Positions 37,079-57,773 of a stretch of 64,000 bases of DNA are shown here, piece by piece; the stretch's first letter is position 1, and every line of letters begins with the position of its first letter. The stretch is from contig JAFATB010000019.1 in the NCBI GenBank assembly GCA_019244185.1, positions 160,001 through 224,000 on the forward strand. Reading direction: 5' to 3'. Source of the DNA: Acidobacteriota bacterium. Its GTDB lineage: Bacteria; Acidobacteriota; Thermoanaerobaculia; Gp7-AA8. The translations under genes and the position numbers were made by a program. Under the pieces are notes generated by a model. It worked only from the letters and a program-made list of their open reading frames with translations, did no database searches and was not told the origin of the DNA.

Positions 37079-37107
37079 GGTAGGGAAGTGCTCGGATCGG
37101 TCACTCC
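37079..37107 (+). promoter_or_regulatory. GGTAGGGAA-N11-GGTCACTCC motif, copy 1
   Basis: Exact bipartite match to the copies at 45274 and 57773; upstream of the recombinase. Confidence 0.75.
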
Positions 37108-37172
37108 TAGAGAGGTAGCCTCGGGCGGTCGAATCCGCTATGTCTCCGCGCATGAAGGAAATGCGAGGACAT

Positions 37173-37766
37173 ATGCAAGAGGGTGCCTACCAGGTCCGTA
37201 ACTCGGAGTTTCATCTCACGCCCGAAGAGCTTTCGACGCTCATCGCAGGCGCGCAGTCGGAGAGAGATCGTCTCATGGTGTTGGTCTTGGCGTTTACAGG
37301 AATTCGCCGCGCGGAGCTGCGCAGCCTTCGGCCCGCCGATATCGACAGCGTCACGGAACGCCTCATCGTGCGTCGCGGCAAGGGCGGCAAGCAGCGCATC
37401 GTCTTTCTGCCAAAGCGCGTCGCCTTGGATGTATGCCGGTACGCAGGAGCGCACGCGGAGGCGTTCGTGTTCCCAGGCCGAAACGGCGGCCCCATGTCGC
37501 TGCGCAACATCAACTACATCCTCACGCGTGTCGGGAAACACGCGGGCGTGGCCACGCCAAATCCGCGATATGTCGGCATCGGCCCGCATCTCCTGCGCCA
37601 CTCGTTCGCCCGAAACTGGAAGCGGAGCGGCGGCTCCATCGAGTCGCTGCAAAAAATGCTCGGTCACGCGAGCGCGAAGACAACACTGGATTGCTACGGA
37701 ACGGAGGACTTGCGCGAAGTTGAAGCAAACTACCGCGAGCGTTGCTCGCGGCTCGTTTCGAGCTAG
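37173..37766 (+). CDS. Small tyrosine recombinase (catalytic domain only)
   Basis: TGIRRAEL, GKGGKQR, HLLRHSFA and LGH...LDCY motifs. Alternative start 37140. Confidence 0.92.
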   Translation: MQEGAYQVRNSEFHLTPEELSTLIAGAQSERDRLMVLVLAFTGIRRAELRSLRPADIDSVTERLIVRRGKGGKQRIVFLPKRVALDVCRYAGAHAEAFVFPGRNGGPMSLRNINYILTRVGKHAGVATPNPRYVGIGPHLLRHSFARNWKRSGGSIESLQKMLGHASAKTTLDCYGTEDLREVEANYRERCSRLVSS

Positions 37767-37798
37767 TTTGCTCACTTTCGCCAGAGTAGGAAAAGCTC

Positions 37799-39208
37799 GT
37801 GCTGACCGTCGCCATCGTTCTGTTCTTCGTCACCACCCTTCTCATCGTTCAGGTGGCTATACGAAACCGCCCGCTCAAGTTGTACCGGCCGCTCGATGAC
37901 GATGACGTACCGTTTCCAGCTGCTGGACAAGCGAGCACCGTGTTTTCCCTCGCGGCGCTCTTTGGCTGCTACCCAGGCATCTTTCTCCTGATCGGGGGAA
38001 TTGGATTCGTGGGTGTTGCCGGCGGCAGCGCGGCCGCCCTACTACTCATCCGCGCGGCGCAGGCAGGTCACGAAGGCGGCTACGAGACGTTTCTCGAGGA
38101 TTTTCGCGACCGCTTTCGGGACACAGGGACGTTTTTCTTCGCGCTCTTCATCCTTCAGATTGGCTTTGCCATCTCTGAACTCGTCTTTCTACGGGTTGTA
38201 CTCCTACTCGCATTCGGCCTCAGTCCGAGCACGGCCAGCTACGCGGCGCTCGCCGTAGCAGTCGTTGGTTACTGCTACTGCCTCACGGGTGGCTATAACA
38301 CGGTCTTTCGCACAGACATTGTCCAACTTCTGACGGTCGCCGGGATGTGCCTGCTTCTCCTCGGCGCGCTCGCGACCTCACTCAGTCTTCCTGAATTCCT
38401 GACTGCCGCCGGAGCCAAGATGGTGCATCACGGTGGGTACTGGACGGCGGGATTCTTCCGATGGTCGTGGGTTGAACGCATCCTCGACTTCTCCTCCGGT
38501 TTCCTGCTTGGCTTTGCATTCCTACTCGTGAGCCCCGACACATGGAAACGGGTCTACATCGTTAGTCGCGTCCCGTCGCGTCGTGGCATCTCCCTCCTAT
38601 TCGTGGCGGCGGCATTCCCGTTCGTTGCAATCACGCCACTCGTTCTCGCGCTGCCAAATCTTCCACACGGCGTCGTCGACCCAACGGTGTTCCTCCAGCG
38701 CCTGGCCGGCAACCGAATCCTTCTTGGCGCAACGCTTATCGGTGTCTTCGCCAGCTTCCTCTCGTCATTCGACAGCGCGCTCATCGCAGCAACGCATGTG
38801 AGTCTCCTCTCGGCGCGTCGCGCGCGGCCTGCACTCGAAGAACTTGACCGGTTCCGATATCTAGCCGCGCTTCACTTCGTGATTGTGTCGCTGGTCTTTG
38901 TCATCGGGAGTCGCTTCGGAAATCCTGGGATTATGGCTACGATCCTCATGGGAACGTATCCCGTGCTCGGAGGCCTGCTGATCGGAACCCGCGCGGGCAC
39001 CCGCAATCTCCCGTCGGGAGCGTTCGGACTAGTCTTCCTTCTCGGCTGTGTCGCGTGGATTGTCTTCACGATGAGCGACGAAATGCGGTTCGAGGTGGGC
39101 CGGACGACAGACCTGAACTTCGTGCCGGCCGCTGGCTGTGTGCTCCTGGCATCCGCGGCGATGTCATGGATTCTCTCTTGGATTCCGCAGCAGCGGGAGG
39201 ACGAATGA
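37799..39208 (+). CDS. Divergent sodium:solute symporter-like membrane protein
   Basis: About 12-13 TM segments; Y...GGYNTVFRTDIVQ, PDTWKR and ASFLSSFDSAL match SSS-family patterns. Confidence 0.7.
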   Translation: MLTVAIVLFFVTTLLIVQVAIRNRPLKLYRPLDDDDVPFPAAGQASTVFSLAALFGCYPGIFLLIGGIGFVGVAGGSAAALLLIRAAQAGHEGGYETFLEDFRDRFRDTGTFFFALFILQIGFAISELVFLRVVLLLAFGLSPSTASYAALAVAVVGYCYCLTGGYNTVFRTDIVQLLTVAGMCLLLLGALATSLSLPEFLTAAGAKMVHHGGYWTAGFFRWSWVERILDFSSGFLLGFAFLLVSPDTWKRVYIVSRVPSRRGISLLFVAAAFPFVAITPLVLALPNLPHGVVDPTVFLQRLAGNRILLGATLIGVFASFLSSFDSALIAATHVSLLSARRARPALEELDRFRYLAALHFVIVSLVFVIGSRFGNPGIMATILMGTYPVLGGLLIGTRAGTRNLPSGAFGLVFLLGCVAWIVFTMSDEMRFEVGRTTDLNFVPAAGCVLLASAAMSWILSWIPQQREDE

Positions 39209-39795
39209 CTGACTTCGTTCTCGGCTACGCCGAGAAGCTTTGGGATCGCACGACGCCGGAGTATCGCGCCTTAGTCGTCGCGTTCATCCTCGCCCCCACA
39301 ATGGGCGCACTTCTCATCTGGTTGGCCGGGCCAGCGCCCTCCACGCATGCAACAATTTCCCCACCGCTGAACGTCATGCCACTTCGAGCACATGCAGCCG
39401 GACCGCGAGACCCCGCCACCACGGTCGTAATCGTGCAGCCGACGGAGGCGACCTTTACGATGCCATGGACAAGGCCACTAAGCGCCCTTCCCACGTCCCT
39501 CAGCGAGGAGCAGTGGCGAGGAAACACGGCGAAGATCTCGCAATCAAACCGTACAATTTCCATTGTCGTGCCGCTCGCTGGGGTGCAGGAACCCTTTGTC
39601 TTTCTGACGCAAGACGCGCCGCCGGATGCGGTGGAAATTTCAGGGCGAAAGTATGCGATGGCAGACTTGCGACTCCGTTCGCAGCAGGCAACCGACATTC
39701 TTCTTGGGGTGCTAATCTCCGCCGCGTTCGCTCTCGGCGTCGGCGTGTCGACTGCCAGCATTCCGATCCAGGCGCAGGAGCACGGAAGCGGTTAA
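39205..39795 (+). CDS. Two-TM hypothetical protein
   Basis: GGAGG-ATG with ATGA overlap; N- and C-terminal TM segments. Confidence 0.65.
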   Translation: MTDFVLGYAEKLWDRTTPEYRALVVAFILAPTMGALLIWLAGPAPSTHATISPPLNVMPLRAHAAGPRDPATTVVIVQPTEATFTMPWTRPLSALPTSLSEEQWRGNTAKISQSNRTISIVVPLAGVQEPFVFLTQDAPPDAVEISGRKYAMADLRLRSQQATDILLGVLISAAFALGVGVSTASIPIQAQEHGSG

Positions 39796-40038
39796 CACCG
39801 TGCAGAGGAATACGAGAATGGGATCGTTGAGCGGAACTCCGAGATATCGCGGCCCTGGATCGTTGTGTGCCCACGCCCGCCAGTGGAGTAAGAACGGATC
39901 CCATGGAAAGAAGATGAGCGCCACGGCGATGGCCGTACGTAGCACCGCGAGGATCTCTCGCCGTGAACGCACACAACTCACGAGAGCGATGATCGCGGCG
40001 ATCCCGACGCCGAGGTTGAGGACCGAATAGCGTGTCAT
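39712..40038 (-). CDS. Lycopene cyclase domain protein (CrtYd-like)
   Basis: 108 aa, hydrophobic; WD...W...GPRYLGVPLND pattern. Confidence 0.7.
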   Translation of the reverse strand: MTRYSVLNLGVGIAAIIALVSCVRSRREILAVLRTAIAVALIFFPWDPFLLHWRAWAHNDPGPRYLGVPLNDPILVFLCTVLTASVLLRLDRNAGSRHADAESERGGD

Positions 40039-40343
40039 GTCCGCGCTCCTCGCCGAAGTGTGTTGCGCAGAACGAGTCTCGTGATGACGGTATGACCAAA
40101 GAGCGCTAACCATTCCTCCAGGGGCAACCGCGCGACACGAATCGGCAAGGTACCTTCAGCCGGGAAGTACCAGACACCCGTCTCGAGCGCGATCTGATCG
40201 ACGATGAACCAGAGCGCGATAAGCACAACCGACGTACTCCAGAGTCGTCCCGAGCGAAGGTCTTCCAACGTAACCGCGGGCCACGCGAACGACATCACGG
40301 CCGCAAGCAACGCGAGATCGAAGTAGAGGTAGTCGATGTTCAT
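40035..40343 (-). CDS. Lycopene cyclase domain protein (CrtYc-like)
   Basis: 102 aa, hydrophobic; DQIALETGVWYF...LPLEE pattern; ATGA-coupled to its partner. Confidence 0.75.
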   Translation of the reverse strand: MNIDYLYFDLALLAAVMSFAWPAVTLEDLRSGRLWSTSVVLIALWFIVDQIALETGVWYFPAEGTLPIRVARLPLEEWLALFGHTVITRLVLRNTLRRGART

Positions 40344-40520
40344 TTCCCACTTTGGCGAAAGTGTGAAATGACGCTTACCTGCGCCCCCGATAGGAGGATT
40401 TCGACCGTTTCCGCAGATCGTCCGCCGCTGACTACTACAATGGTTTCCGCGACGGGAGATTTTGCACAGCACTCGGCTACGCGCCGCACTGATCTTTCTC
40501 AAACCTCTATCCCCACACCT

Positions 40521-40952: not shown

Positions 40953-41166
40953 CCACACGCGAGAAGACGGCTTCTCGGGAGGCGGTCGTAGCGTGCAAAT
41001 CTCCGTCGCCTCTTCATCGCCGTGAATGGGACGCGACTTCGACCGAGTCGCCTGACGATGCCGTCCGCATCAGCGATGCTGCTGCTCGCGAGTCGTGAGA
41101 TTGCACCGGCTGATTCGTCAGCCGCTCACGCGGTTCTTTCTCAAGCCATCCTTTCACTCCACTCCT

Positions 41167-42315: not shown

Positions 42316-42418
42316 CTCCTCTGGTGCGGTTCCGATGTGGAAGTCGCTCCGCACCTTGGGCCTCTGTCCCCACGCTGTAAGAACCAGAGCCGCGCCGCAG
42401 CCGCAGCCCGGCTCCCGT

Positions 42419-45273: not shown

Positions 45274-45302
45274 GGTAGGGAATTTTCTCTCCAGGTCACT
45301 CC
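45274..45302 (+). promoter_or_regulatory. GGTAGGGAA-N11-GGTCACTCC motif, copy 2
   Basis: Exact match, about 75 nt upstream of the SBP gene. Confidence 0.75.
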
Positions 45303-45378: not shown

Positions 45379-46392
45379 GTGAAGGAGTACCTGATGAATC
45401 ATCCTCGGCGTCCAAGTGCGTTGTTCACCATAATGTTACTGCTCCTCGCTAGCTGCGCGAAAGATGAGGGACGCACAACTTCAGCGGCCCCCGCAGCGCG
45501 CGCATCTCTTCGGGTTGCTGTGAATCCGGTGCCGCAGTCCGCGCTTGTGATCATCGCCGCAGAGCGCGGCTACTTTGCACGCGAAAACCTCGACGTCACC
45601 GTCAGCCGTTTCCCTACGGGCAAGCTCGCCTTTGACGCGGTGCTCGGAGGGGCGGCCGATGTTGCGACGGTCGCCGACGTCCCAATCATGTACGCGCTCA
45701 TGTCCGGGCAGGCGCCAGCAGTACTCGCGACAATCGAACGATCTGGGAAAAGCGTCAAACTGCTCGCCCGCAAGGACGCCGCAATCGCGTCTCCTGCGGA
45801 CCTTCGCGGCAAGAAGGTCGGTACGTTCAAGGGTAGCAGCGGGGAATTCTTTCTCGACGCGCTGTTGGCCAAGCACCACGTACCATCCGCCGAAGTGGCG
45901 ATCGTACATTTACAGCCACCGGACCTAGTGACGGCGATCACCAGAAAGGACGTCGCGGCTATTAGTATCTTCGAACCCCATATCCACAACGCGGCTACAG
46001 TTCTCGGATCGAACGCGTTGGTGGTCGAGGACCCGTCGGTCTACACCGAAATCTTCAATGTCGCGACGACAGAAAAGGCCCTCGCCGCTCGGCAAGACGC
46101 CTTTGTCTCGTTCCTACGCGCTCTGCAGCGAGCCGCGGACGACATCAGGCGGGATCCGAATGGCGCGCAGGCGAGCGTCGCTCGATTCACCCAGCTTGAC
46201 CCAAATGTGCTGCGTGAAATTTGGCCGATGTTTCAGTTCACCATCACGACCGATCGTGTGCTCCCCGATCTACTACGACGCGAAGCGGATTTCGCCGTGC
46301 GTTCTGGGTCGCTGCCAGCGCCGAGCTCGGAACCACAGTTCGAACGTGTGCTCAAACCTGAAGTTCTTAGTAAGGCAACCGCTACGCCATGA
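45379..46392 (+). CDS. NrtA/SsuA/NMT1-family ABC substrate-binding lipoprotein
   Basis: Lipobox LASC; IAAERGYFARENLDV, DLRGKKVG..KGSSGE and IFEP motifs. Confidence 0.9.
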   Translation: MKEYLMNHPRRPSALFTIMLLLLASCAKDEGRTTSAAPAARASLRVAVNPVPQSALVIIAAERGYFARENLDVTVSRFPTGKLAFDAVLGGAADVATVADVPIMYALMSGQAPAVLATIERSGKSVKLLARKDAAIASPADLRGKKVGTFKGSSGEFFLDALLAKHHVPSAEVAIVHLQPPDLVTAITRKDVAAISIFEPHIHNAATVLGSNALVVEDPSVYTEIFNVATTEKALAARQDAFVSFLRALQRAADDIRRDPNGAQASVARFTQLDPNVLREIWPMFQFTITTDRVLPDLLRREADFAVRSGSLPAPSSEPQFERVLKPEVLSKATATP

Positions 46393-46427
46393 CCGCCGAC
46401 CCCATTACGCGATAGAAAGTTCACGCA

Positions 46428-48812
46428 ATGGCAAACAACGGCACCGAAGGCGTTCTGAGAGATCTTCTACAAGATCTTCAGCAACGGCGCGACGGCAGTT
46501 TTTCAGAGAACCTCCAACGCCTCTTTACGCATGACGTCTTGTCTCAGCTTGCACCGCAAACCGACTTGAAAGCCGTTCTGAAATCCGCGTCGCCAGCCGA
46601 GGTGTCCGCTCGCGAACTCCAGGCCACCCGTGCCGATGACGGGAACCGATCGAATGATGCTGCCACCCTTCTCGCCCGAAATGCTTCGCCGGGCGCGTCA
46701 TCCACACCGGCTCGCGGCAAAAAGAGGCGTGGCAACGAGGGCACTCATGGCGTGTCTCAACCCGCTGTTTCGCCTTCAGCCATGAAGGCGCAGGTTCCGA
46801 AGGATGAAGAGGTGCTTCGTGACCCAGCTGCTCCATCGCCCACAATCATCGTCTCGGCATTTCATTACGTGAGCCAAACACTTGGAAAGTGGTTTCGGGT
46901 CATCCTTGAGCCCGAGCTTTTGAACGAGAGCGGCATACAGCCCCTAGAGCTGTCCCAGCACGAATACGCGTACGACGAAGCACCACAACGATTGAACATT
47001 CCTGTCTGGAAAACGGTGCGCGAGCCGCTCTGGATCCAATTCGGCGGCGAAGAGCAATCGCCATTCCCCGACTCTGATCGATACCTATACGTCTCCGCTG
47101 AGGAAAAGAGACTTCTAAACGAACTGCTTGAGAACTACGTTGAGGGCCGTCGCTTCTACCGGTTTATCCTCGGCCTCGGGAAGCTTGAGAATCTTGCAAC
47201 GGCGTCCGTTGACCGCATGGCTGGCGTTCTTGAGAAGCTTTACAAGCTCATGCCACCCGAACGACCGATCGCAGCCCCGGACATTTTTGACAGAGATGAA
47301 AAGAACGCCGTATGGCGCGCCTTCGTCTTTTCCTTTTTCCTATCGATTCGTGCACGGTCCCCGGAGGTTCATGTCCTTGTCGTTCCGTGCTGTTTCGATG
47401 GTTCCAGCATGCTTGAACGTGATCTACCCCAGCTCGGCACATTTGTCGGAGCGTATGTCGGCAAGCCGTCACAACAAACCATCGACTCGATTAGCAGAGT
47501 CTTCTCGCCAATTGTTCGCGCTCTTGCGCTTCGCGAACTAAACGCTCTTCAAGTGGCGAATGGTCGCGACATCGTAGGGATTGAGGATGTCATTCGAAGC
47601 TGCGCATACCTCGATAAGCGCGTACAAGAGGACGTCAACCAATATCGCGGCTGGCTGAAGAAAAATCTGCAGCCACTATTATATGGCAGGGGTGAGGACG
47701 AGTGGCCGGACTTGGATGTATTCCGGATGACGGGCGGGGATGAACGCATGCTTCAGCTCTTTGACCGCATCGCCTCGGCCGCCCGCGACGGCGTCGGCAA
47801 AGACGGACTGACCAAGGGAAGAACCTTTTTCTTTAGTTCTGAGCCAGGCTGCGGCAAAGAAAACATCGCGACCCTTTGCCATCTCCTTAGCCCCCGAGTA
47901 CTAAACGGAGATGGCGGCGAAAACACCCAGCATTTCACGGCGGCGTCAGCCATCGCGGGAGGTGAGAAATATGGACCGGCAATGCTAGCGACTGAAGTGC
48001 AGGCCAAGATCCACTTAGCCGCAATACAGGATCCTGAATGGCTCCGTCTCCGGTCATCGGCCTCCGCGGAGCTTCTCAATGCGGTTAAAATTTCGAAGGG
48101 CGATGCCCCCACGGCGAAAGCGGTCCTTGAGCTCCTCAGAAGCGCGCCGCTGTTTAATTACGATGCCTTCAATACGAGCCTGCTCAATCAGCGGAACTTC
48201 GCAGAGCTGATGTTCGGCTCAAGCGAGAAGCCGGGCGTCCTTTTTCGGATACATGAATTGTCGGGCACTGTTTTCCTGGATGAAATCAACACAACAGAAC
48301 CCGGAATAGCAAACAATCTGTTGCGTGTGCTTGATAAGCCGCATCAGATCCCGGTAAAAAAAGGCGATATCTACCGCGACGAGACGATCAACATTCAGAT
48401 CGTTTTCGGCTCGAATCGCACGGCGGAGGAATTGCTCGCAGATGGCTTCAATTCCGCCGTGGTGTTCCGTCTGGCGGCGCGGCCCTTCCGTATTCCGCCA
48501 CTCCGCGAGCGCAAGAATGACATCGCGATCTTTGTTAATCACCACCTGTTGAAGCGGCGGGATGACAATCGGGAAAAGCTTGGAAACCTGAGTCGTATCT
48601 CACTGAATGGCCTTCGTCTGATCTGCGAGCTTCCGTGGGCTGATAACTACCGAGGATTGCGAGCGTTCCTGGACGACTTGATCGAAGAGCGGCTGCGGCG
48701 CGAGGTGCGCGACGCGGAGATCACCTTCGACGACGTAATTCGGGCGATTTCCAGACGTGAGGCAATGCGCGTCACGCCAACCCCAGTGAAGGCCGTTCGA
48801 CTGTCAGCGTGA
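46428..48812 (+). CDS. Atypical sigma54-activator-like AAA+ protein
   Basis: EPGCGKE, TVFLDEI, LLRVL, FRL, IPPLRERKNDI and WADNYRGL motifs. GAFTGA loop and C-terminal HTH absent. Confidence 0.75.
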   Translation: MANNGTEGVLRDLLQDLQQRRDGSFSENLQRLFTHDVLSQLAPQTDLKAVLKSASPAEVSARELQATRADDGNRSNDAATLLARNASPGASSTPARGKKRRGNEGTHGVSQPAVSPSAMKAQVPKDEEVLRDPAAPSPTIIVSAFHYVSQTLGKWFRVILEPELLNESGIQPLELSQHEYAYDEAPQRLNIPVWKTVREPLWIQFGGEEQSPFPDSDRYLYVSAEEKRLLNELLENYVEGRRFYRFILGLGKLENLATASVDRMAGVLEKLYKLMPPERPIAAPDIFDRDEKNAVWRAFVFSFFLSIRARSPEVHVLVVPCCFDGSSMLERDLPQLGTFVGAYVGKPSQQTIDSISRVFSPIVRALALRELNALQVANGRDIVGIEDVIRSCAYLDKRVQEDVNQYRGWLKKNLQPLLYGRGEDEWPDLDVFRMTGGDERMLQLFDRIASAARDGVGKDGLTKGRTFFFSSEPGCGKENIATLCHLLSPRVLNGDGGENTQHFTAASAIAGGEKYGPAMLATEVQAKIHLAAIQDPEWLRLRSSASAELLNAVKISKGDAPTAKAVLELLRSAPLFNYDAFNTSLLNQRNFAELMFGSSEKPGVLFRIHELSGTVFLDEINTTEPGIANNLLRVLDKPHQIPVKKGDIYRDETINIQIVFGSNRTAEELLADGFNSAVVFRLAARPFRIPPLRERKNDIAIFVNHHLLKRRDDNREKLGNLSRISLNGLRLICELPWADNYRGLRAFLDDLIEERLRREVRDAEITFDDVIRAISRREAMRVTPTPVKAVRLSA

Positions 48813-48828
48813 GTGGCGCGCTGGTACC

Positions 48829-49794
48829 GTGTCTCGCGAACCACTAACATTTGCCATGCGATCAACCGAGACCACGACCATCTCCGCACCATGGCCCCCT
48901 GACGATCGTCCGGTGGCCGTCACGCGTTTCAACGGCCTCGACATCGAGTCCGATGGTCCGAGCTGTGTGGCTCAAGACCGGGTGTTCCCGCTGTTCGACG
49001 ATGAGTCGCTGCTCCTGGCAGCTGCCCTGGACCCGGCGCCTGATACGTCCGTTCTCGACGTCGGAACTGGATCGGGCATCTTGGCGCTCGCCGCAGCGCA
49101 GCGCGGCGCGACTGTCCTCGCGACGGATGTGAACCCACGGGCGATCGCCTGCGCCCGCCACAACACCGACGCGAATGGCTTTGCCAACTCCATTAAGATC
49201 CTTCACGCTGATGTCTACACGGGTTTGGACCGTGGCAAGCTCGACCTCATCGTGGCAAACCCTCCTTTTCTGCCTACACCGCCTGAGCTCGAGCTTCTGC
49301 TGACCAGCGGCGGTGGTCCATACGGCACACGGATCGTATCGCCGCTGATCGCCGACGCGCGCGCGATGTTACGGGACGGCGGCCGCTTCGTCTGCCTTGC
49401 CGTCAGCTTCGGGTCACCGGGCAGTTCGGTTGCGCAGCAGCTCGTCGAGAGCGCCTTCTCCGATGGGGATGACGTGCGTGTGCGGGACATCTACGGCTCT
49501 TCGATCTCCGTCGATCGCCTACTGGACCTCTACGCGCGGTGGCATTCAATAACCTCTTGGCGTCGAATGTTGGCCGACCATGGCCTCACGGAGTTGCACT
49601 ATGTCCTCATCGAGGCCAGCAAGGCCACGCCGCTGCCGGCTCCGCGGGCGGTGCAACTTCCCCCCGAGTCGACGTTTGCAGGTTCATGGGATGCGCGATT
49701 TCGCCGCTATGAGGCGTGGTTTAGCGCACTCGATTGCACGGTGTGGGTTCCGCGATCGCGCGGAGAGGCAGACGCTCTTCCGCATTACTTATGA
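48829..49794 (+). CDS. HemK/PrmC-like class I SAM methyltransferase
   Basis: VLDVGTGSG, TDVNPRA and LIVANPPF motifs. Confidence 0.88.
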   Translation: MSREPLTFAMRSTETTTISAPWPPDDRPVAVTRFNGLDIESDGPSCVAQDRVFPLFDDESLLLAAALDPAPDTSVLDVGTGSGILALAAAQRGATVLATDVNPRAIACARHNTDANGFANSIKILHADVYTGLDRGKLDLIVANPPFLPTPPELELLLTSGGGPYGTRIVSPLIADARAMLRDGGRFVCLAVSFGSPGSSVAQQLVESAFSDGDDVRVRDIYGSSISVDRLLDLYARWHSITSWRRMLADHGLTELHYVLIEASKATPLPAPRAVQLPPESTFAGSWDARFRRYEAWFSALDCTVWVPRSRGEADALPHYL

Positions 49795-50561
49795 ACAATT
49801 TGCGAGGCCGTCTCGGCGGCATGCTGACGTGGATCGCCGTCGTGCTCGTCTGGCACTTCGTGGCGGTCCATAGCAATGCCGGCCCGCTCTTCCCGCCGCC
49901 TGCGACTGTGCTCAAGGCATTCATCCTGTGGCTGCGTAGCGGTGATTTGGTTCAGGACGTTGCCGCAAGCTGCGGTCGGGTCACGCTCGGATGGCTGATT
50001 GGAACCGGAGTTGGACTTCTTGTTGGGCTCATTACAGGTGTGTGGTCGGTCGGCGATCGGACCATCGGCTCCGTACTCAACACGCTTCGTGCATTGCCGC
50101 CTGTCGCGCTCGTTCCGCTTGCGATTCTCTGGTTCGGTATTTCCGAAGTGTCCAAGATCGCGATCGTAGGATGGGGCGCCTTCTTCCCCGTCTGGTTAAA
50201 CACGCATATCGGAATCCGGGACATTGACCGAACCGTCGTGTGGGCTGCGCGGAGCCTCGGCGCGCGCGGTTCTTCGCTGCTCTTTCGCGTGATCTTGCCG
50301 GCGGCCCTGCCGCAAGTCGTAGCGGGAGTACGGCTGGCGATTGGCATCGCGTATGTCTGTGTCTTTGTGGCGGAACTGGCCGGAGCATCGCGCGGGCTCG
50401 GCTTCCGGATTGCGACGGCGCACCTGACGTTCCGTGCGGATCTGATGCTAGCTGGCTTAGCCGTCCTCGGATTCTTTGGCTACGCATCGGATCGCGTGTT
50501 CGTTCTAGGCACGGGATACCTGATGCCGTGGACACGAAGCAGCGTGGCTGGCAATGGGTGA
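49791..50561 (+). CDS. SsuC/TauC-like ABC permease
   Basis: LPPVALVPLAILWFG, AARSLGA (EAA loop) and VILPAALP motifs. Confidence 0.92.
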   Translation: MNNLRGRLGGMLTWIAVVLVWHFVAVHSNAGPLFPPPATVLKAFILWLRSGDLVQDVAASCGRVTLGWLIGTGVGLLVGLITGVWSVGDRTIGSVLNTLRALPPVALVPLAILWFGISEVSKIAIVGWGAFFPVWLNTHIGIRDIDRTVVWAARSLGARGSSLLFRVILPAALPQVVAGVRLAIGIAYVCVFVAELAGASRGLGFRIATAHLTFRADLMLAGLAVLGFFGYASDRVFVLGTGYLMPWTRSSVAGNG

Positions 50562-52179
50562 AATCCCCCTGAATGCCTCACCACAAGCGCCGTTTGTTGT
50601 CCTCGATCGGCTGACGGTGGAGTATCGAAGGCACGGCGATAACCACGCGACCGCCGCCGTCCAGGACCTGAGCCTCTCCGTTCAGGAAAAGGAGTTCGTG
50701 GCCGTGGTCGGCCCAAGTGGATGTGGGAAATCGACCCTTATCCACACGCTCGCCGGCTTCGTTCCGCCGACGCGTGGGACTGTCACCGTTGGGGGAGCCG
50801 TGATTCAGGGTCCCTCCCCGGACCGGGGTGTTCTTTTCCAGCGTTTGGGGTTGTTCCCATGGGCAACGGTGGCGGCCAACGTTCGGTTCGGTCTCGATTT
50901 TGGCGGGACGGTTGGCGACGGACGTGCGTCGGTTGCCGAACTGCTGCAGCGAGTTGGTCTGGAGTCGTTTGCAGACTTCTATCCTGCGCAACTCTCGGGT
51001 GGTATGGCGCAACGCGTGGCCATCGCTCGCGTGCTTGCGCCAGCACCACAGGTGCTCTTGCTGGACGAGCCGTTTGTTGCGCTCGACGCACAGACGCGGG
51101 ATGAAATGCATCAACTCCTCTTGCGCCTCCACGAGCGGAAACCCATGACGGTCATTCTCGTGACGCACGACGTCGAAGAAGCCGTTCTCCTCGCCGACCG
51201 TGTCATCGTTCTGAGCGCGCGCCCGGCTCACGTCGTGCAGGACGTCCCCGTCGACCTGGGGCGGCCCCGCGAGCGCGATATGGCGATGGATGAGCGCTTC
51301 ATCGCGAGCCGCATTGAGATTTCCGATGCACTCCGGGAGGAGGTCTTGAGAGCGCGCCTCCAAGCCCGCACGCGAACGCTCCGCGCAAAGGGACGCAGGG
51401 TCATCCGAGTAGGCGCAGTGCCCACGGCTGAATCAGCACCATTGACACAAATCCGTGCGACTGCACCGACGGACGACGTTCTCTACGAATTCTTTGAGTA
51501 CGATTCTGGCGCCGCCATTGTGCGAACGCTTCTCAGCGGTGAGTGTGACGTGGCCGTCTTGGGCGCTTGCCCAGTTCTTGCGGCGCTCCACGAAGAGGCT
51601 GCGCTCGTTGTGGTGCGCGATGGCGGCCATGTCAAGAGTGGCTTGGCCGCGGCTTTGGTCGCGACGCCGACGGTTGCTGGTCTCACGCCCGAAGAGCTTG
51701 CGGAACTGCCGATTGGCATCAACGGACGCGGATCAAACGCGGAGTACCTAACACGCGCTTTTTTCCGAGACATCCAGCGCGAGGTGTCGATGGTCGTGAA
51801 ACCGTTCGACCAGCTTCTGCGGGAACTTGAGAAGCGGCGATTGCAGCTCGCCGGCCTGCCTGCACCCTATCTCCAACGGGCCGTCACCGATCTAGGTTGC
51901 GCGGTTGTCTGCAACTTTGCCGAGCTGGTCAACCCATTGCAGATCGCTGTGGTCGTCTGCAGGCGAGAACTGGATGGGTTCCTCCTGCATCCATTCGTAC
52001 GACAGTGGGACATCGCGGTACGTGAGATGGCCGCGAAGCTCAATTATGACGGCGATGCTTCCGCAACGAGGTGGTCGAATGAGCAGCTCGCCGACCGGCT
52101 CGCGGTGCTTGACCATTTAGTCGTCGCACCTGCGTACGGGAACACACTGCGGGTGAGTGACTACGTGCGCCTCGAATAG
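50554..52179 (+). CDS. SsuB/TauB-like ABC ATPase fused to a C-terminal SBP-like domain
   Basis: GPSGCGKS, LSGGMAQR, LLLDEPF and VTHD motifs, then about 270 aa starting IRVGAVPTAESAPL with DVAVLG and IGINGRGS. Confidence 0.85.
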   Translation: MGEIPLNASPQAPFVVLDRLTVEYRRHGDNHATAAVQDLSLSVQEKEFVAVVGPSGCGKSTLIHTLAGFVPPTRGTVTVGGAVIQGPSPDRGVLFQRLGLFPWATVAANVRFGLDFGGTVGDGRASVAELLQRVGLESFADFYPAQLSGGMAQRVAIARVLAPAPQVLLLDEPFVALDAQTRDEMHQLLLRLHERKPMTVILVTHDVEEAVLLADRVIVLSARPAHVVQDVPVDLGRPRERDMAMDERFIASRIEISDALREEVLRARLQARTRTLRAKGRRVIRVGAVPTAESAPLTQIRATAPTDDVLYEFFEYDSGAAIVRTLLSGECDVAVLGACPVLAALHEEAALVVVRDGGHVKSGLAAALVATPTVAGLTPEELAELPIGINGRGSNAEYLTRAFFRDIQREVSMVVKPFDQLLRELEKRRLQLAGLPAPYLQRAVTDLGCAVVCNFAELVNPLQIAVVVCRRELDGFLLHPFVRQWDIAVREMAAKLNYDGDASATRWSNEQLADRLAVLDHLVVAPAYGNTLRVSDYVRLE

Positions 52180-52201
52180 ACGATGGACGTGGGGACTCAC
52201 G

Positions 52202-53638
52202 TTGACAACAGCGAGCGATCAGTCAGGCTTTAGGCGTCTACGGGACGCCATAGAAGCCGTGGTGCGTCTCCGCCAGCAGGCTTGGCACGCCATCGTCGAG
52301 CATCTGTCACGACTGCGACCCGCCGGCGACGGCGGCGAAACAACGCGAGCCTCAAGGGTGCGGCGCGTATGCGTTCTCGTCTCAAGCTCGCGTGGCGGCG
52401 GTAGCGTAACGGCCGAGATGCTCCAGTGGCAAGGCGCCGAGTGTGACGTTTGGGGCCGCAGGATTCTCAGCCTTCCTGGCGAAGAGAAGCCGCATCTGAT
52501 TCTGGCCGGTTTGGCATATCCGGCACGGTCTGAGCGCTACGACGATCTCGAAGCCCCAGACGCATGCGCATCCGCTGTTGAGGGGCTGCTGAACGAGGTG
52601 TCGTCCGAAATAGGCTATCCGGCTGCCCAGACCAGCGATTGGCACCTCTACGCCTCCCAGCTTTACCGGCGTCTGTTGCTGCAGTGGCCCTTCGAGATGA
52701 TTCGGCTGCACCCGGAAGCCGTGACTTGTTCGATCGCCGACACGCTCCTGCGCGCGTTCCCTGAAGGATACCGCGACACGCCCGACAATAGGCGCCGCGT
52801 GCTGGACTGCTGCGTGTCTTGCTTCCCGTTTATTCGGTCCTCCTTCTACGACTGCGGCATCCTACGCAATACAAGCGACGCTCGCCTGCTCGCGCACGGG
52901 GCTTGGTCCTATGAGGAGCCACCATTCGTGCTTCCACCACCTTGGCACCATGCAAGCGCCGCAGAAGTTGAATGCGGAACACTCCTTCTTCGCGACCCCT
53001 CGAACGCTTGGCGGCTGCCATTCTGGCGGGTCACCTTTCCGACACAAGACATACGACTCCTGCATCTCGTTCGGGACGTAGCGGAGTCCGTCCAAGGTCT
53101 TTGTGACGGCTGGAATTACGTCTTTGGCTTCCAGACGCTTCCGAGCGATTTGCCTCTCCGCATTTCTGGGTATTCGAATCACGTCACGAGTGTCGAGACA
53201 GCCTGGAAGCGCTTTCGACTCAACTTCTCCGTCGATCGCCAGCTCAGCGAGCTGCTGCTTACGGACCGGCGTCCTATGGAGCTTGCGCATGTGTGCTCGA
53301 TGCAGTGGCGATTCGCACACGAACGGATACTCGCCGATGCCTCCATCCTCAGTCTACCGCGGCTGCAGCTGCAGTTTTCGGACGTCCGATCCCAACCGCT
53401 CCAGGCGTTGGAGAACGCATGTGTAGCACTGAACCTCGGAGTATCGAAGTCTGGCGCTGACTATGGCCGATCGTTTTCCTCGCGGCGAGTCATGGCAACC
53501 GACACGAACGATCGCGGAGTTTCATTTGAGCGTTGGAGGCAGTCGCCCTACGCATCGGTGATAACGCGATTAGCCAAAAGCGAGGATGTTGCTAACGTAG
53601 CCCGCTGCCTCGGATTGACTCGGGTTCGGGACGACTAA
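52202..53638 (+). CDS. Sulfotransferase-like P-loop protein (start uncertain: 52157 or 52202)
   Basis: VLVSSSRGGGS PAPS-loop-like motif; LLLRDPSNAWRL and LHLVRD...L.DGW. Confidence 0.65.
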   Translation: MTTASDQSGFRRLRDAIEAVVRLRQQAWHAIVEHLSRLRPAGDGGETTRASRVRRVCVLVSSSRGGGSVTAEMLQWQGAECDVWGRRILSLPGEEKPHLILAGLAYPARSERYDDLEAPDACASAVEGLLNEVSSEIGYPAAQTSDWHLYASQLYRRLLLQWPFEMIRLHPEAVTCSIADTLLRAFPEGYRDTPDNRRRVLDCCVSCFPFIRSSFYDCGILRNTSDARLLAHGAWSYEEPPFVLPPPWHHASAAEVECGTLLLRDPSNAWRLPFWRVTFPTQDIRLLHLVRDVAESVQGLCDGWNYVFGFQTLPSDLPLRISGYSNHVTSVETAWKRFRLNFSVDRQLSELLLTDRRPMELAHVCSMQWRFAHERILADASILSLPRLQLQFSDVRSQPLQALENACVALNLGVSKSGADYGRSFSSRRVMATDTNDRGVSFERWRQSPYASVITRLAKSEDVANVARCLGLTRVRDD

Positions 53639-53691
53639 CATGGCCGCTACCGCGCGATTGAATTGTGGTCGAGCGTTTGGGAGGTTACTGT

Positions 53692-54495
53692 ATGCAAACG
53701 TGTTTAGCGCCGTTTTTCATCGGTCGCGCTGAATTGAATCTGGACATGCACGGCACCTTTGATGTCGTGTTGCCATCTGACTTGGTGGGCGATGAGCCTG
53801 GTTCGATGGAAGCTATCGTTCGCATCAATAGCGCAATACGAGATGTGGTCGCTGATTGTGCGGCGCGCGGCGAAGTGGCGCTCGTCTTGTGTGGGGATTG
53901 TTTGAGTGCCATTGGGTGTCTAGCCGGCCTCGAGCGACGTGATGTTTACCCCTTCCTGCTGTGGTTCGATGCTCACGGCGACTTCCACACGACAGAGACG
54001 ACGCTGAGCGGTCACCTCGGAGGAATGCCGCTAGCAATGATTACTGGCAGGGGCGATACCTCCTTGCTGTCAGGCGTGGGCCTTTCCCCGTTAGCCGACA
54101 CCCGTGTTTGCCTTATCGGCGCCCGAGATGTGGAGCCAGGCGAAAGAGAGCTACTTGCGGCTTCCGACGTGCTTCAGGGTCGATGTCTCGCTGACGTGTT
54201 GGAAAGATTGCCTAAGGGATGTCCGGTGTGGGTACACTTCGATACGGACTACATAAGCTCTCGCGACGCGCCAGCGATGCGCTATCCCGCGAGCGGAGGC
54301 CCTTCAGCGCTCGACGTTAGGGCAGAGTTCGAGATGATCGCACGAAGGTTCTCTGTCTTGGGAGTGTCAATATCAGCGTGGGCCCCTCACTTGGACGAAG
54401 GGAGCCGCACGGCGTCAGCATGCTGGGGGGCGATAGCCGGCATCCTGCCCCATGGAGATCGCGCGAATGAAAGCGGAGATCGGCGCGGCGACTAA
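53692..54495 (+). CDS. Arginase/ureohydrolase family protein
   Basis: GDC, WFDAHGDFH, SGHLGGMP, IGARD and VHFDTD motifs. Confidence 0.9.
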   Translation: MQTCLAPFFIGRAELNLDMHGTFDVVLPSDLVGDEPGSMEAIVRINSAIRDVVADCAARGEVALVLCGDCLSAIGCLAGLERRDVYPFLLWFDAHGDFHTTETTLSGHLGGMPLAMITGRGDTSLLSGVGLSPLADTRVCLIGARDVEPGERELLAASDVLQGRCLADVLERLPKGCPVWVHFDTDYISSRDAPAMRYPASGGPSALDVRAEFEMIARRFSVLGVSISAWAPHLDEGSRTASACWGAIAGILPHGDRANESGDRRGD

Positions 54496-54832
54496 GAGTA
54501 CGGATGCAGGTGCGTATGGACAAAATAACAGCGATTCAAGATCTCGCACGTGCCGCCTTTGGTGGCCCGCCGCAACTGGCCTACGGCGACTATCTCTGCG
54601 GAATCGCGACCAACCACCTCGGTCGGCATGCTCTTCGCGCCGAAAAATGGCAAAGAGTTGCGCGAGGACGTATGCGACGTGACGACCGCGGACATGAGCA
54701 TCGACGTTCTAAACGAGGCACAGGCGGATCGCCGTCGACCCCAAAACGCTCTCCACGGGCGAGGAGGAGTGGCGCACCCGTTCCTATGTCCGCGTCTTCA
54801 CCGCGTCACAACGCCGCCCGTCACGAGTGTTT

Positions 54833-55486
54833 TTATGAGATGTGCTCAGATGCCCTGCTCGCCGTCATCACTTGAAACTGCCGTGCATAGTCGTCAATGA
54901 GCATTTCTAGCGCCGCGACAGTTGTGCTCTTCCAGCGATCCAAATACGCAAATGTTTCGCGCTCCATCGCATGAAAACTGTGGGAAGTTGCCGCTCGATA
55001 TACAACGGCCGCCGCGAGTCCTATCGCGCCGATGACGAGCGGGACCTGAACTGCCGCGAGAGCCGTGCGGGCAATGGCCATCCGTACGCCGCCGCCCGCC
55101 AAGAGTCCCGCGGCCGCAGAATAGACGACCCGGCGGTCTGGAGCGAATGACACCGCCTGCACTGGTGGCAGTGTCGTCGCCTCTCTTGTATGCGCTGTCC
55201 ACGCGCTGTTGAACTCGTGGAAGCGCTTACGAAGCGAGACGTCGGCTCCCGCCAGCGACTCCAGCGCGTCTTTGGCCACGTGGTTGAGGAGCGAGTCGAG
55301 CAGCAGCCGCTCCTTCCGTCCCAATACTGCTTCGAAGTAGCCAGCGATGCGCTCTCTTGCTTGCGCCGCGTCGGACGAGCCGGGCTCCAGGTAATGCGAG
55401 CGTACGTACTCGATCAACTCAGCGCTGATCTCGTCCGCATCACGCCGCGTTCTCTGTCGGGTCGAAAGAAATTCGGTCGATTGCAT
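54833..55486 (-). CDS. Helical protein with hydrophobic hairpin, dynamin partner
   Basis: GGGAGG-ATG 28 nt after the dynamin stop; AAAGLLAGGG...LVIGAIGLAAAVVY. Confidence 0.75.
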   Translation of the reverse strand: MQSTEFLSTRQRTRRDADEISAELIEYVRSHYLEPGSSDAAQARERIAGYFEAVLGRKERLLLDSLLNHVAKDALESLAGADVSLRKRFHEFNSAWTAHTREATTLPPVQAVSFAPDRRVVYSAAAGLLAGGGVRMAIARTALAAVQVPLVIGAIGLAAAVVYRAATSHSFHAMERETFAYLDRWKSTTVAALEMLIDDYARQFQVMTASRASEHIS

Positions 55487-55514
55487 GGTGTCCCTCCCGT
55501 ATCGCACGCGATGT

Positions 55515-57710
55515 TTAGAGGACTGCGGTGAGTTCGTCGATCGTTCCGCGCTCTTTCGCGGTCGTCTGTTCCTGTCCTTCGAGAAATCGAATCTCCTCCC
55601 GGAGAACCTCCGCTTCCTGGCGCTCGTTGAGCAGGCGGTCGTAGGCTGAGGAGCGCTCGGCGACCACCAACGCCATCCGGCTGTTGAAATCAGCCCGATA
55701 CCCACTAGCCGTAAGGCTGACCGCCTCGGTCATATCGTCGCTCAACTTCTGGACTGCCAGTTGAGACAGTTGGCGAAACTCCTCGAAATGTTTGCGCTCA
55801 TTGCGAATTTTCTGCTGGCGGTCAGGAGCACCATCGAAAAACTCCTTGGCCGCCTGCGCTCCCCCCAGCAGCGCGGCCCCCAGAACAGCACCGGGAGGTC
55901 CTCCGACCAGGAAGCCTCCGATGCCTCCGAGGAGTGCACCGATAATTCCGCCCACAGCCGCGCGCGGCTTCCGATCGCCTTTCACCTTGATGTACTCGTA
56001 CGCGCGGTCCTCCGCGTCACGTGTGATCGCTTCCATGCTAATTGTTGGAAGATGAACTGAGTACTTCGACTCGAACGTCTGTCCGAGCTCTCTCATCTTT
56101 CGCTCGTACGCCTCTCGGAGAGCCGCCACTCGTTGTTTAAGCAACCCATCGGATTCGTTGCTGAAATCGACGAGAAGTTTCTTCATCTCATCGATGGAAG
56201 CTGCGTCTGAGAGAGCTTTGTCGTATCGCTTCGCAAGCGCAGAAAACGCAACCTGCGTTTCGCCGAGGCCGGTGAAGGCGTCGAGGTCCTGCGTTCCAAA
56301 TGAGGCAAGCGCGTCCTGGTAGCGCTTTAAGATCTCCTTGAGCTGTTCAATCTCCTCCTCGAAATCTTCAGGGGGACGCGTCACCTGGCTCCTGCGCAAA
56401 TGGATGCGCTCACCGTAGATGCGGCGATGCTCGTGATAAGCATCTGCGATGTGGGTCAAGATCGAGCCTACGAAGCTCGCAAATGCCTTACTGGAAAACT
56501 CGCGCAGCAGAGCTTCCGCCGCATCGAAGTTGGAGTCGCGTGCCAGCGCTTGCCGGATCGTGGTGGCGGTGTCTGGCGATCGCCCTTTCTCCCGCTGCTC
56601 CGCTTCCTCCTGAATGTAGTAGGCCAGCAACCGCTTGATCTCTTCGTCGCGGCGCAGCGCCTCAACCTTCTCGCCCGCGTCGATGCGGTTCGCTATGATC
56701 TTGAGGAGGCTGTCGATGGCCAGAATACGCCCCCGCCTGATTTCAGACTCGGGGTAGAGCGAGTGCGTCTCGTGGACTAGCGTCGTGCGTTGAGCGGCTG
56801 TTAGCGACCAGGCGTGCGTCAGAAAGAGGAACGCGTTCTGCTTGGGCTTCTGCGGCACCTTATGCTTGAAGAAATGCTCCAGCGACCTGCTGGCGATGTT
56901 GTCGGCCCGGTGTAGCAGGACCACCGCGTCGGCATCGACGATGTACTTGATCGTCGCCTCGTCTAGTCCGCCACGCGCGTTGACCCCCGGCGTGTCGACG
57001 ATGTGGAGATCGGAGTACCCAAAGCGAAGTGGATATCCTACCGTCACCTGAACGGGGATTCGCTGCAAATCGCGGTACTCGTCGAGGTAGTGCCGGACGA
57101 GCGCGACGAACTTCGCCTTGGGAAGGCGATGTGGGCTTTCCAGGAGAGCCTCGCCATTCTCGTCGCGTCTCTCCAACAGTTCGGCCACGATCTCGTCGGT
57201 GATCGCCTCAGGCTGTTCGGTGAGCAGGTATTCGTTCAGCTGGAAGATCGGGAGATCACGATACTCCTCGCGCACCGCTGCGATGGCCTCTAGGCGGTCG
57301 CGCATCGGGCCGAGGTCTTCCGCCCTTCCGCTTTCAAATTCCAGCCGGGCTTCGGGCATCGTCCCGTACCGCACGCTGAGAAACACGGGGGGGCGTCCCG
57401 GCTGATACGCGGTGTCAACGATCTCAATGACGCCGCTCGTGCACTGAAGAATGTCGGAGGGAAGGACTCTCTGCCGAAGTAATGCGTTGAGGAACGTCGA
57501 CTTACCGGCCTTGGCCTCCCCAACGACTACCAGCAGGTACCTTCCTTCCGCGAGCTTTCTGATGTCGTTCGCGAGAAACTTTAGGTCGTTTTCCGACAGC
57601 GGATCGCTGACGTTAGTATTCTTCACCAGTTCCGATCGCGCCCGCATGTATCGGTGAAAGATGTCTAACGTCGCGGCGCGAATCTGTTCCTGTTGCTGCT
57701 GAGCGAACAC
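55515..57710 (-). CDS. Bacterial dynamin-like GTPase
   Basis: VVGEAKAGKSTFLNALL, CTS, IVDTPG and ADAV motifs; coiled coils; Gly-rich hydrophobic hairpin. Confidence 0.9.
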   Translation of the reverse strand: MFAQQQQEQIRAATLDIFHRYMRARSELVKNTNVSDPLSENDLKFLANDIRKLAEGRYLLVVVGEAKAGKSTFLNALLRQRVLPSDILQCTSGVIEIVDTAYQPGRPPVFLSVRYGTMPEARLEFESGRAEDLGPMRDRLEAIAAVREEYRDLPIFQLNEYLLTEQPEAITDEIVAELLERRDENGEALLESPHRLPKAKFVALVRHYLDEYRDLQRIPVQVTVGYPLRFGYSDLHIVDTPGVNARGGLDEATIKYIVDADAVVLLHRADNIASRSLEHFFKHKVPQKPKQNAFLFLTHAWSLTAAQRTTLVHETHSLYPESEIRRGRILAIDSLLKIIANRIDAGEKVEALRRDEEIKRLLAYYIQEEAEQREKGRSPDTATTIRQALARDSNFDAAEALLREFSSKAFASFVGSILTHIADAYHEHRRIYGERIHLRRSQVTRPPEDFEEEIEQLKEILKRYQDALASFGTQDLDAFTGLGETQVAFSALAKRYDKALSDAASIDEMKKLLVDFSNESDGLLKQRVAALREAYERKMRELGQTFESKYSVHLPTISMEAITRDAEDRAYEYIKVKGDRKPRAAVGGIIGALLGGIGGFLVGGPPGAVLGAALLGGAQAAKEFFDGAPDRQQKIRNERKHFEEFRQLSQLAVQKLSDDMTEAVSLTASGYRADFNSRMALVVAERSSAYDRLLNERQEAEVLREEIRFLEGQEQTTAKERGTIDELTAVL

Positions 57711-57744
57711 TCGTCACCTCTCCGCAAGGATGTTGTGTATGAAG

Positions 57745-57773
57745 GGAGTGACCGGAAAAAGCATTTCCCTACC
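57745..57773 (-). promoter_or_regulatory. GGTAGGGAA-N11-GGTCACTCC motif, copy 3
   Basis: GGAGTGACC-N11-TTCCCTACC on the plus strand, about 35 nt upstream of the dynamin GTG. Confidence 0.75.

Follow-up and report, generated by a model that had tools for sequence, protein, structure and literature searches.

A bipartite motif with features of an ECF-type promoter and its candidate sigma factor in gp7 Acidobacteriota

The 64-kb stretch of DNA analysed here (the window; C14:160001-224000 of G000, an assembly of 5.30 Mb in 26 contigs) belongs to an uncultured lineage that is globally common in soil, the Thermoanaerobaculia (gp7 Acidobacteriota). Three exact copies of a bipartite motif stand in the window, each in front of a different gene unit. 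Comparative evidence indicates, with a probability of about 0.78, that this motif is the core promoter of a regulon read by an alternative sigma factor of the extracytoplasmic function (ECF) type, the likeliest reader being the divergent ECF sigma factor encoded at C13:75067-75759 and paired with a soluble anti-sigma factor. Copies of the motif lie just upstream of genes, point into them, recur throughout the family, and are both linked to and co-occurring with the cassette that encodes this sigma factor. These patterns suggest that transcription would start at the motif, which sigma factor would read it, and what might trigger the release of that sigma factor. The regulon would be the first one defined for this lineage, with a promoter code, a candidate sigma factor, and from 2-3 to 57 targets per genome.

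Placement and architecture of the motif

The first-pass annotation of the window reported three identical copies of GGTAGGGAA-N11-GGTCACTCC with differing spacers, each oriented into a downstream gene, and none in the core 24 kb; all of these observations held. A search of both strands of the window returned exactly three matches with 0 mismatches each, scored below in bits of a position weight matrix (PWM):

37079..37107, + strand: motif copy 1, GGTAGGGA-N15-CACTCC, PWM 34.2 bits; predicted promoter of a small tyrosine-recombinase gene and the 469-residue gene that follows it
45274..45302, + strand: motif copy 2, PWM 30.9 bits; predicted to drive the eight open reading frames (ORFs) of the + strand unit at 45379-54875
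57745..57773, - strand: motif copy 3, PWM 33.0 bits; predicted promoter of a dynamin-family gene and the 290-residue gene behind it

No fourth copy was found in the 64-kb window, even when 3 mismatches were allowed, and positions 1-24 kb hold none. The chance expectation is a mean of 0.01 matches, and 0 of 100 shuffles reached 3. ORFs lie behind all three copies: the tyrosine-recombinase gene starts 32 or 65 nucleotides (nt) past copy 1 (alternatives of 208 and 197 residues), an NMT1-type binding-protein gene 76 nt past copy 2, and the 731-residue dynamin-family gene 34 nt past copy 3. Alignment of the three flanks showed spacers that differ and nothing in common outside the motif. An extended repeat or mobile promoter cassette was ruled out because the three copies have no common sequence beyond the motif.

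Throughout G000 the motif forms a sharply bounded class. As a working consensus it reads GGTAGGGA-N15/16-C(A/T)CTCC and then T, with a spacer that begins A/T-rich and a G two bases ahead of the second block. The half-motifs TAGGGA and CACTCC are spaced by 15 nt (14 times), 16 nt (4 times), or 18 nt (once) and by no other distance from 0 to 54 nt, whereas the reversed halves used as a control scatter. A PWM scan at a threshold of at least 20 bits found 35 sites in G000 versus 0 in the reversed genome, with few intermediate scores. The spacer is 15 nt long in 24 of these sites and 16 nt in 11, GGTAGGGA is perfect in 32 of the 35, and the sites are spread across 13 contigs. Measured against gene calls from a self-written and crude codon-usage caller (4537 genes, 92.6% coding), 33 of the 35 sites are fully intergenic (binomial P 2e-35) and the remaining two run into the final 5 nt of the gene before them; at 33 of 35 sites the first gene downstream has the same orientation as the motif (binomial P 2e-8). 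The genome-wide copies are therefore not placed at random relative to genes.

The same placement bears on another explanation, in which the copies are site-specific recombination sites and the 12.5-kb block between copies 2 and 3 is inverted or excised. Copies 2 and 3 are mutually inverted and tyrosine recombinase genes lie nearby, one of them directly behind copy 1, yet nearly all of the 35 copies on 13 contigs stand just upstream of unrelated genes and face them, and the hundreds of copies in about 50 genera share this gene-proximal placement. Moreover, the motif halves as read from the sequence are not inverted repeats of each other, the spacers are unconserved, and the two gene sets that start behind copies 2 and 3 are convergent. 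With the placement of promoters, no arm symmetry, this copy number, and convergent units, recombination sites are the least probable of the readings considered, and the invertible block suggested by the first-pass annotation found no support.

The distance between motif and start codon is informative about promoter function. At 11 of the 35 sites, a start codon 3-9 nt past the motif opens an ORF of at least 60 residues, as against 11.6% of random positions (P 0.0015), and in eight of these 11 the start codon lies at 5-6 nt without a Shine-Dalgarno box. A second class of sites has a GGAG-type box 2-10 nt and a start codon 17-27 nt past the motif. One target, a phosphoesterase gene, has a Pfam domain that starts at residue 8 of the ORF opening at the motif end. 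In a second genome, G049, an examination of 30 of its 34 sites showed ATG 6 nt away at two of them, and a conserved gene for a 75-residue protein begins 8 nt past the motif in both G000 and G049. Start codons 5-6 nt away leave no space for another promoter, which argues that the motif itself would hold the -10 element. The two conserved blocks stand about two helical turns apart, a spacing that would also suit a transcription-factor site (for an activator or a repressor) beside a separate housekeeping promoter. That explanation is improbable: neither the eight sites at 5-6 nt from the start codons of long ORFs nor the many more at 17-27 nt have space for a downstream -10 box, the motif is directional (into the gene at 33 of 35 sites) and is neither a repeat nor a palindrome, and the only DNA-binding protein linked to it over 60 loci is a sigma factor.

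As an ECF-type promoter, the motif would consist of a -35 element, GGTAGGGA, at about -35 to -28 and a -10 element, G(T)C(A/T)CTCC, at about -14 to -7, of which the C(A/T)CTCC part occupies about -12 to -7; these positions were assigned by taking the A of ATG as +1 at leaderless sites. Transcription would begin 6-7 nt past the final C of CTCC, as placed by the leaderless genes, and because of this predicted start about a quarter of the target mRNAs would be leaderless; most others would have leaders of roughly 10-70 nt. ECF promoters usually combine a -35 element with an AAC core and a -10 element with CGT or GTC, and a distance of 21-22 nt from the start of the -35 element to GTC is ECF promoter geometry. 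From the first G of the -35 box here to GTC is 21-22 nt. The cleanest consensus is that of the promoters in the sigma cassettes described below, with the -10 region GTCACTCC; GTC is present in most of these (G in 49 of 63, T in 50 of 63) and in only 14 of 30 regulon sites, as judged by T at that position. The first-pass proposal of an ECF-sigma -35/-10 promoter thus gains comparative support from sites that are intergenic, gene-oriented, fixed in spacing, adjacent to start codons, and family-wide. Its bipartite layout was kept; the -35 element proved to be GGTAGGGA rather than GGGAA, and the predicted start was moved to the position given above.

An RNA element in the 5' leader, such as a CUCC box that masks the Shine-Dalgarno sequence, has also been considered. 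CTCC complements GGAG, and minimum-energy folds pair the box with the downstream Shine-Dalgarno sequence at several sites (for example C9:18865, C21:86335, C1:22972). Set against this, 24 sites folded with their flanks gave a mean z of -0.72 and no common structure, leaderless sites lack any Shine-Dalgarno box that could be masked, nothing pairs with the invariant 5' half, and a transcribed motif would need a further conserved promoter upstream, of which none was seen. The structural reading was rejected for want of a common fold among the 24 folded sites, and a leader element of any kind is very improbable. At several sites, the three just named among them, where GGAG follows the CTCC of the -10 box by 7-10 nt, transcripts reading through from upstream would fold a hairpin that masks the ribosome site, which may insulate the gene from upstream transcription.

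The motif is largely confined to one family. Within the genus, 34 of 35 genomes carry the exact pattern, with 7-47 copies each (0-2 for the reversed control); within the family, 112 of 117 genomes do, with 1-57 copies and from about 50 genera. In the sister families it was found in 1 of 1 genome of f2 (3 copies) and 0 of 2 of f3, and 14 genomes from other families of the class have 0-1 copies. The related loci are from metagenome-assembled genomes (MAGs) of uncultured Thermoanaerobaculia or Acidobacteria gp7. The counts include unpublished genomes (G002, G024, G030, G075, G083), and the scanned loci include L047 and L073 (G024) and L054 and L082 (G002); these are the sole basis of no conclusion, except that G075 is the single case in which the sigma factor is present and the motif absent. 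In a sister-family genome, G025, two tandem motif copies 475 nt apart (L206 4429-5000) are each followed by ATG 4 nt past CTCC and by near-identical first codons, and look like duplicated leaderless small genes.

The sigma, anti-sigma, and secreted-peptide cassette

About 50 ECF genes are encoded in G000, none of them within the window, which agrees with the first-pass proposal that the sigma factor is encoded elsewhere. Four paralogous sigma/anti-sigma cassettes of one subfamily are present (C13, C11, C2, and C17). In a genome scan, all four sigma genes scored above the TIGR02937 sigma70-ECF cut-off (for the C11 paralog, 46.1 bits versus a cut-off of 42.9, over residues 140-289 of a 299-residue ORF), and the nearest solved relative of the subfamily is the Mycobacterium tuberculosis ECF sigma factor SigL. 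In the C13 cassette, a motif of 36.9 bits lies 22 nt past the anti-sigma stop codon and 47 nt before a 65-residue signal-peptide ORF, followed by a G+C-rich hairpin and an ABC-2 exporter. The motif stands directly behind the anti-sigma gene in 26 of 30 loci of the genus, the other four being cut contigs, and the same arrangement recurs in 60 of 60 named MAG loci that have at least 1750 nt after the sigma gene. It lies 1336-1410 nt past the end of the sigma gene and 42-66 nt before a signal-peptide ORF of 59-76 residues, which usually ends in PPKP or PPRP. Even genomes with only 2-3 copies of the motif retain this cassette promoter.

The anti-sigma genes overlap or abut the sigma genes. Their products share an H-x3-C-x2-C motif that is invariant in 51 sequences (H30, C34, C37), as is H10, and give weak matches, below the cut-offs, to NCBIfam RsrA and Pfam zf-HC2. 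An AlphaFold2 model built from the 51-sequence alignment is all-helical (mean predicted local distance difference test score 92.7), with a short N-terminal domain that holds H10, H30, C34, and C37, followed by about eight repeats resembling tetratricopeptide repeats (TPRs). No membrane segment was seen in either sequence or model. The best fold matches are to LGN/Pins (template modelling score about 0.5) and to Rap proteins with and without pheromone (0.42-0.46), and the sequence profile matches kinesin light chain, Rap, and NprR; as far as the model goes, this likeness to peptide-binding TPR proteins is generic. By its zinc motif and gene position, the protein would be a zinc-binding anti-sigma factor (ZAS), with zinc binding predicted.

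Presence of the C13-type sigma factor tracks presence of the motif. Orthologs that are 72-83% identical occur in 34 of 35 genomes of the genus. The lone genus genome without one (G014, 99% complete; best match 40% identity) is also the lone one with 0 motif copies; it retains a cassette of the subfamily, about 40% identical to all four G000 paralogs, with neither peptide gene nor motif behind it. The sigma-4 recognition helix is invariant in the C13 orthogroup across genera that are only 62-79% identical overall; the C11 paralog has a similar helix, and that of G014 has diverged. In a draw of 121 genomes from the order, the motif was present in 105 of 106 with a sigma ortholog (E<=1e-45) versus 9 of 15 without (Fisher P 9e-6, a value that is overstated since kin are not independent). 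Three of those nine, all from genus g26 and with 6-7 copies each, have a diverged ortholog (41-44% identical) in the same cassette; in G063 and G131 the motif behind the anti-sigma gene has diverged and a canonical motif lies ahead of the sigma operon, and G070 has weak motif-like matches only.

Several points weigh against the C13-type sigma factor as the reader of an ECF promoter. Beyond the inflated P value and the crudeness of the gene calls, the evidence is throughout comparative and drawn from sequence, and the -35 box lacks the AAC core. Five of the nine sigma-less carriers have 1-2 copies, which is within control noise; G025 (78% complete) has 3 copies and no detected sigma factor of the subfamily, either in the genome or near the copies; and G075 lacks an exact motif although it has the sigma factor (52% identity). 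The C13-type sigma operon differs from most studied ECF systems in having no promoter motif of its own: the search ahead of it gave 3 hits in 77 loci, two of them weak and one a coordinate artefact. The check named in the first-pass annotation, whether the motif precedes an ECF sigma gene, turned out differently for the C11 and C13 types. At C11:60974-61003 the motif stands 4-7 nt before the C11 sigma gene (C11:61008), and the paralogous sigma gene begins 4-7 nt past the motif in G000, G003, G017, and G022, whereas the C13-type operon is usually not preceded by it and the motif follows the anti-sigma gene. The motif does precede the sigma gene, as it would under autoregulation, in the C11-type paralog and in the diverged ortholog of genus g26. 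With about 50 ECF genes and four paralogous cassettes, a paralog could be the reader, or several sigma factors could share the motif.

The main residual doubt is thus that a different sigma factor reads the promoter, from a paralogous cassette (C11, C17, or C2 type) or an unrelated alternative one, and that the C13 cassette is only a target. Along with the large number of ECF genes and the missing motif ahead of the C13 operon, this is favoured by the C11 type, in which the sigma gene is directly preceded by the motif in 4-5 of 10 orthologs and the sigma-4 recognition helix closely resembles the C13-type one. Nevertheless it is unlikely: only 9 of 24 other genomes of the genus have a C11-type ortholog (E<1e-50), versus 34 of 35 with the motif, the motif holds a fixed place in all 60 C13-type loci, and G014 has no motif even though it keeps a cassette that is no closer to one of the four paralogs than to another.

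If the C13-type sigma factor is the reader, it would be co-transcribed with its soluble anti-sigma factor, in which about eight TPR repeats follow the N-terminal zinc-type H-x3-C-x2-C domain, and release of the sigma factor would let RNA polymerase fire all of the approximately 35 promoters together. The targets would include the peptide gene behind the anti-sigma gene (a feedback loop), the paralogous sigma gene at C11:61008, and the three units of the window. The fixed promoter before a secreted-peptide gene, behind a TPR anti-sigma gene, points to peptide-controlled sigma activity. The cassette might thus be a peptide-pheromone switch of the quorum-sensing type with an ECF output, in which peptide sensed by the TPR domain frees more sigma factor, the whole promoter class fires at high density, and incoming islands and defence genes join by bringing along or evolving a promoter of about 14 bases. 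This extension is tentative and, on balance, doubtful. If it were true, strain-specific defence genes (Eleos-like dynamin, PD-Lambda-1), recombinase genes, and those for antagonism (LodA oxidase, lipases, patatins, a type VI secretion system part) would switch on together.

Additional features of these cassettes have been observed. An ABC-type ATPase with a Walker A motif follows the C13 cassette (C13:77218-79796; L056 3719-6297) in 50 of 58 related loci, so that the exporter is a conserved neighbour of the cassette; it might be reached by read-through past the hairpin. The C11 sigma gene is followed by an overlapping gene for a 453-residue protein with H-x3-C-x2-C and TPR repeats, and beyond this anti-sigma gene, at C11:63330-64220 (L028 about 3860-4750), the translations of all frames consist of short repeats, pointing to a tandem repeat of roughly 30 nt in the DNA. 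The C17 cassette (C17:80620-82616, L058) has a weaker motif of 17.2 bits, GGTAGGTA, divergent from its sigma gene; its signal-peptide gene is convergent with the anti-sigma gene and carries CGTCACACC upstream, so that its -10 region is alike, whereas GGTAGGGA is missing there. A difference in -35 specificity between the paralogs is possible.

Relation to known regulatory systems

When the system is set beside well-studied ECF regulons (Escherichia coli sigma-E, Bacillus subtilis sigma-W, and M. tuberculosis SigL) by the consensus features of their promoters, the resemblances include a two-domain sigma factor (regions 2 and 4) above the TIGR02937 cut-off, an anti-sigma gene that overlaps the end of the sigma gene, and a stringent bipartite promoter with 21-22 nt to GTC. 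In contrast to those regulons, the -35 element GGTAGGGA has no AAC core and the -10 element is extended to GTCACTCC, the sigma operon is not autoregulated by the motif in most genera, the cassette promoter heads a secreted-peptide gene, and regulon size varies from 2-3 to 57 sites between genera. The anti-sigma factor shares the N-terminal H-x3-C-x2-C and the gene position directly behind the sigma gene with the ZAS proteins RsrA, ChrR, and RslA. It differs from them in that its zinc domain is joined to a soluble superhelix of TPRs, about 350 residues long, and in matches to the curated families that fall below cut-offs.

A second likeness is to the RRNPP systems (Rap/Phr, NprR/NprX, PlcR/PapR, and AimR/AimP), in which the gene of a cytoplasmic TPR receptor likewise adjoins a small gene whose product is a secreted peptide carrying a signal sequence. 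The profile and fold matches include Rap and NprR, and by analogy the peptide gene would be under the output of its own circuit. Unlike the RRNPP systems, the output here is an anti-sigma domain rather than a helix-turn-helix domain or a phosphatase, the hosts are Acidobacteriota rather than Firmicutes or their phages, the mature peptide would have about 40 residues versus 5-10, and generic TPR proteins (LGN, kinesin light chain) match the anti-sigma factor equally well or better.

Control of anti-phage defence by an ECF sigma/anti-sigma pair has a precedent in Myxococcus xanthus, where DdvS and DdvA are reported to form such a pair and to switch on a CRISPR-Cas system (PMC6061681). In that pair DdvA is membrane-bound, one operon is targeted, and no linked peptide gene is described, whereas the system described here has a soluble anti-sigma factor and dozens of unrelated accessory genes as predicted targets. 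Passages of the ECF re-classification (PMC7826278) yielded no group described with a TPR anti-sigma factor. In the literature searched, no ECF sigma factor under peptide control of the kind considered above was found, no system combining an ECF sigma factor, a TPR anti-sigma factor, and a peptide or quorum signal, and no description joining Thermoanaerobaculia with a sigma factor; the letters GGTAGGGA together with "sigma" returned, among the matches listed, primer tables and reagent names. The system is very probably of the ECF type, and its sequence points to several new features: an unusual consensus, a peptide-driving promoter behind a TPR anti-sigma gene, frequent leaderless targets, and a regulon dominated by accessory genes.

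Regulon content and cargo of the window

The predicted targets in G000 were scanned against Pfam at 32 of the 35 sites, with the two best candidate ORFs per site. Fifteen sites have a Pfam match and 17 do not. The matched products are a recombinase, an NMT1 binding protein, dynamin, NDH-2, TetR, patatin, an ABC ATPase, a phosphoesterase, MOSC, SAF, AAA, DUF4041 with T5orf172, the type VI secretion protein TssK/VasE, an alkyl-sulfatase-like protein, and the paralogous sigma factor. Among 24 proteins compared with PADLOC, the DUF4041 protein matches PD-Lambda-1 (E 4e-172) and the window dynamin is LeoBC-like (2e-19); IetA and RtcR-like matches are weak. Median G+C content in the 1.5 kb downstream of the sites is 65.0%, versus 67.3% from all gene starts (Mann-Whitney P 8e-7), and falls below the genome's 10th percentile at 13 of 35 sites. 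In G049, 14 of the 30 first ORFs have a Pfam match: a cyclase with NB-ARC, a class-3 lipase, a patatin (PADLOC phospholipase effector model, E 1.6e-46), a metallo-beta-lactamase-fold protein, an NMT1 binding protein, tyrosinase, SAM synthetase, an LCAT-like hydrolase, a sigma-54 activator, GAF, LodA lysine oxidase, a glycosyltransferase, and a cytochrome c protein.

These contents suggest a regulon made up for the most part of accessory, mobile, defence, and antagonism genes, with targets enriched for unknown and compositionally atypical ones. The first-pass proposal that a single regulon ties together defence, metabolic, and recombinase cargo is likewise favoured by the comparative evidence. 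One other site is probably a second core member: at C6:394356-395340 (L009 1501-2485; also L190 in G049) the motif is followed after 8 nt by the gene for the 75-residue protein, which is acidic, and then by TetR and ABC permease genes. Many genera have a site whose spacer is like this one, and three of the four readable genomes with 2-3 copies (G061, G101, and G117, not G110) have a site resembling it, as judged by spacers only. That the motif travels with its cargo is only partly supported. Of six PD-Lambda-1 homologs in the family, one (in G008, of the same genus) has an upstream motif-like site, with one mismatch, which argues for gain within the lineage rather than for a promoter that always travels with the gene.

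The units behind the window copies, together with a tRNA gene upstream, are as follows:

24743..24819, + strand: tRNA-Pro(GGG), probable integration site and left edge of the island
37140..37766, + strand: tyrosine recombinase, catalytic domain only (Pfam Phage_integrase, E 3.2e-27)
37799..39208, + strand: 469-residue gene of no Pfam family (no match at E<=0.05), probably co-transcribed with the recombinase gene
45379..54875, + strand: copy-2 cargo unit of eight ORFs with ordered products, G+C 57-62%, below that of the genome
54833-55705, - strand: 290-residue gene with a weak DUF2207_C match only, overlapping the dynamin gene (unit 54833..57710)
55515-57710, - strand: dynamin-family GTPase of 731 residues (PADLOC LeoBC, E 2.2e-19)

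The recombinase may start at ATG 37140 (208 residues) or at ATG 37173 (197 residues), the latter behind a GAGGA Shine-Dalgarno-like box. The label "SSS transporter" that the first-pass annotation gave to the next gene was not confirmed by the Pfam search, and its "dynamin pair" is one dynamin by Pfam, the 731-residue protein, and a 290-residue partner that is not. The copy-2 unit encodes, in order, an NMT1-type binding protein, a 794-residue protein that includes an RtcR/PspF-like AAA+ region, a methyltransferase, an ABC permease, an ABC ATPase, a 493-residue unknown protein, an arginase-family protein, and a 123-residue unknown protein. Within 46428-49794, the C-terminal part of the 794-residue protein resembles AAA+ regulators of the RtcR/PspF type (PADLOC 2.7e-18), and the methyltransferase has a partial match to MADS mad2 (2.7e-24). 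Instead of plain metabolism, this "ABC operon" may serve defence or regulation.

Neither the 731-residue dynamin gene nor the 794-residue gene was found in any of 120 other genomes of the order, and a metagenome scan for relatives of the dynamin confirmed none. Strain-specific cargo thus carries perfect copies of a family-specific promoter, which makes the wiring of acquired genes into a host-specific switch testable. The approximately 39 kb after the tRNA-Pro gene (24743-63900) encode Replic_Relax, SSB, DUF1508, and four tyrosine recombinases (37140, 44167, 61547, and 62833-63855). From 24743 to about 63.9 kb, the window would therefore represent an element integrated at tRNA-Pro that holds all three motif copies. 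The same region also encodes a ResIII/SNF2 helicase with PbeA and type IV restriction matches.

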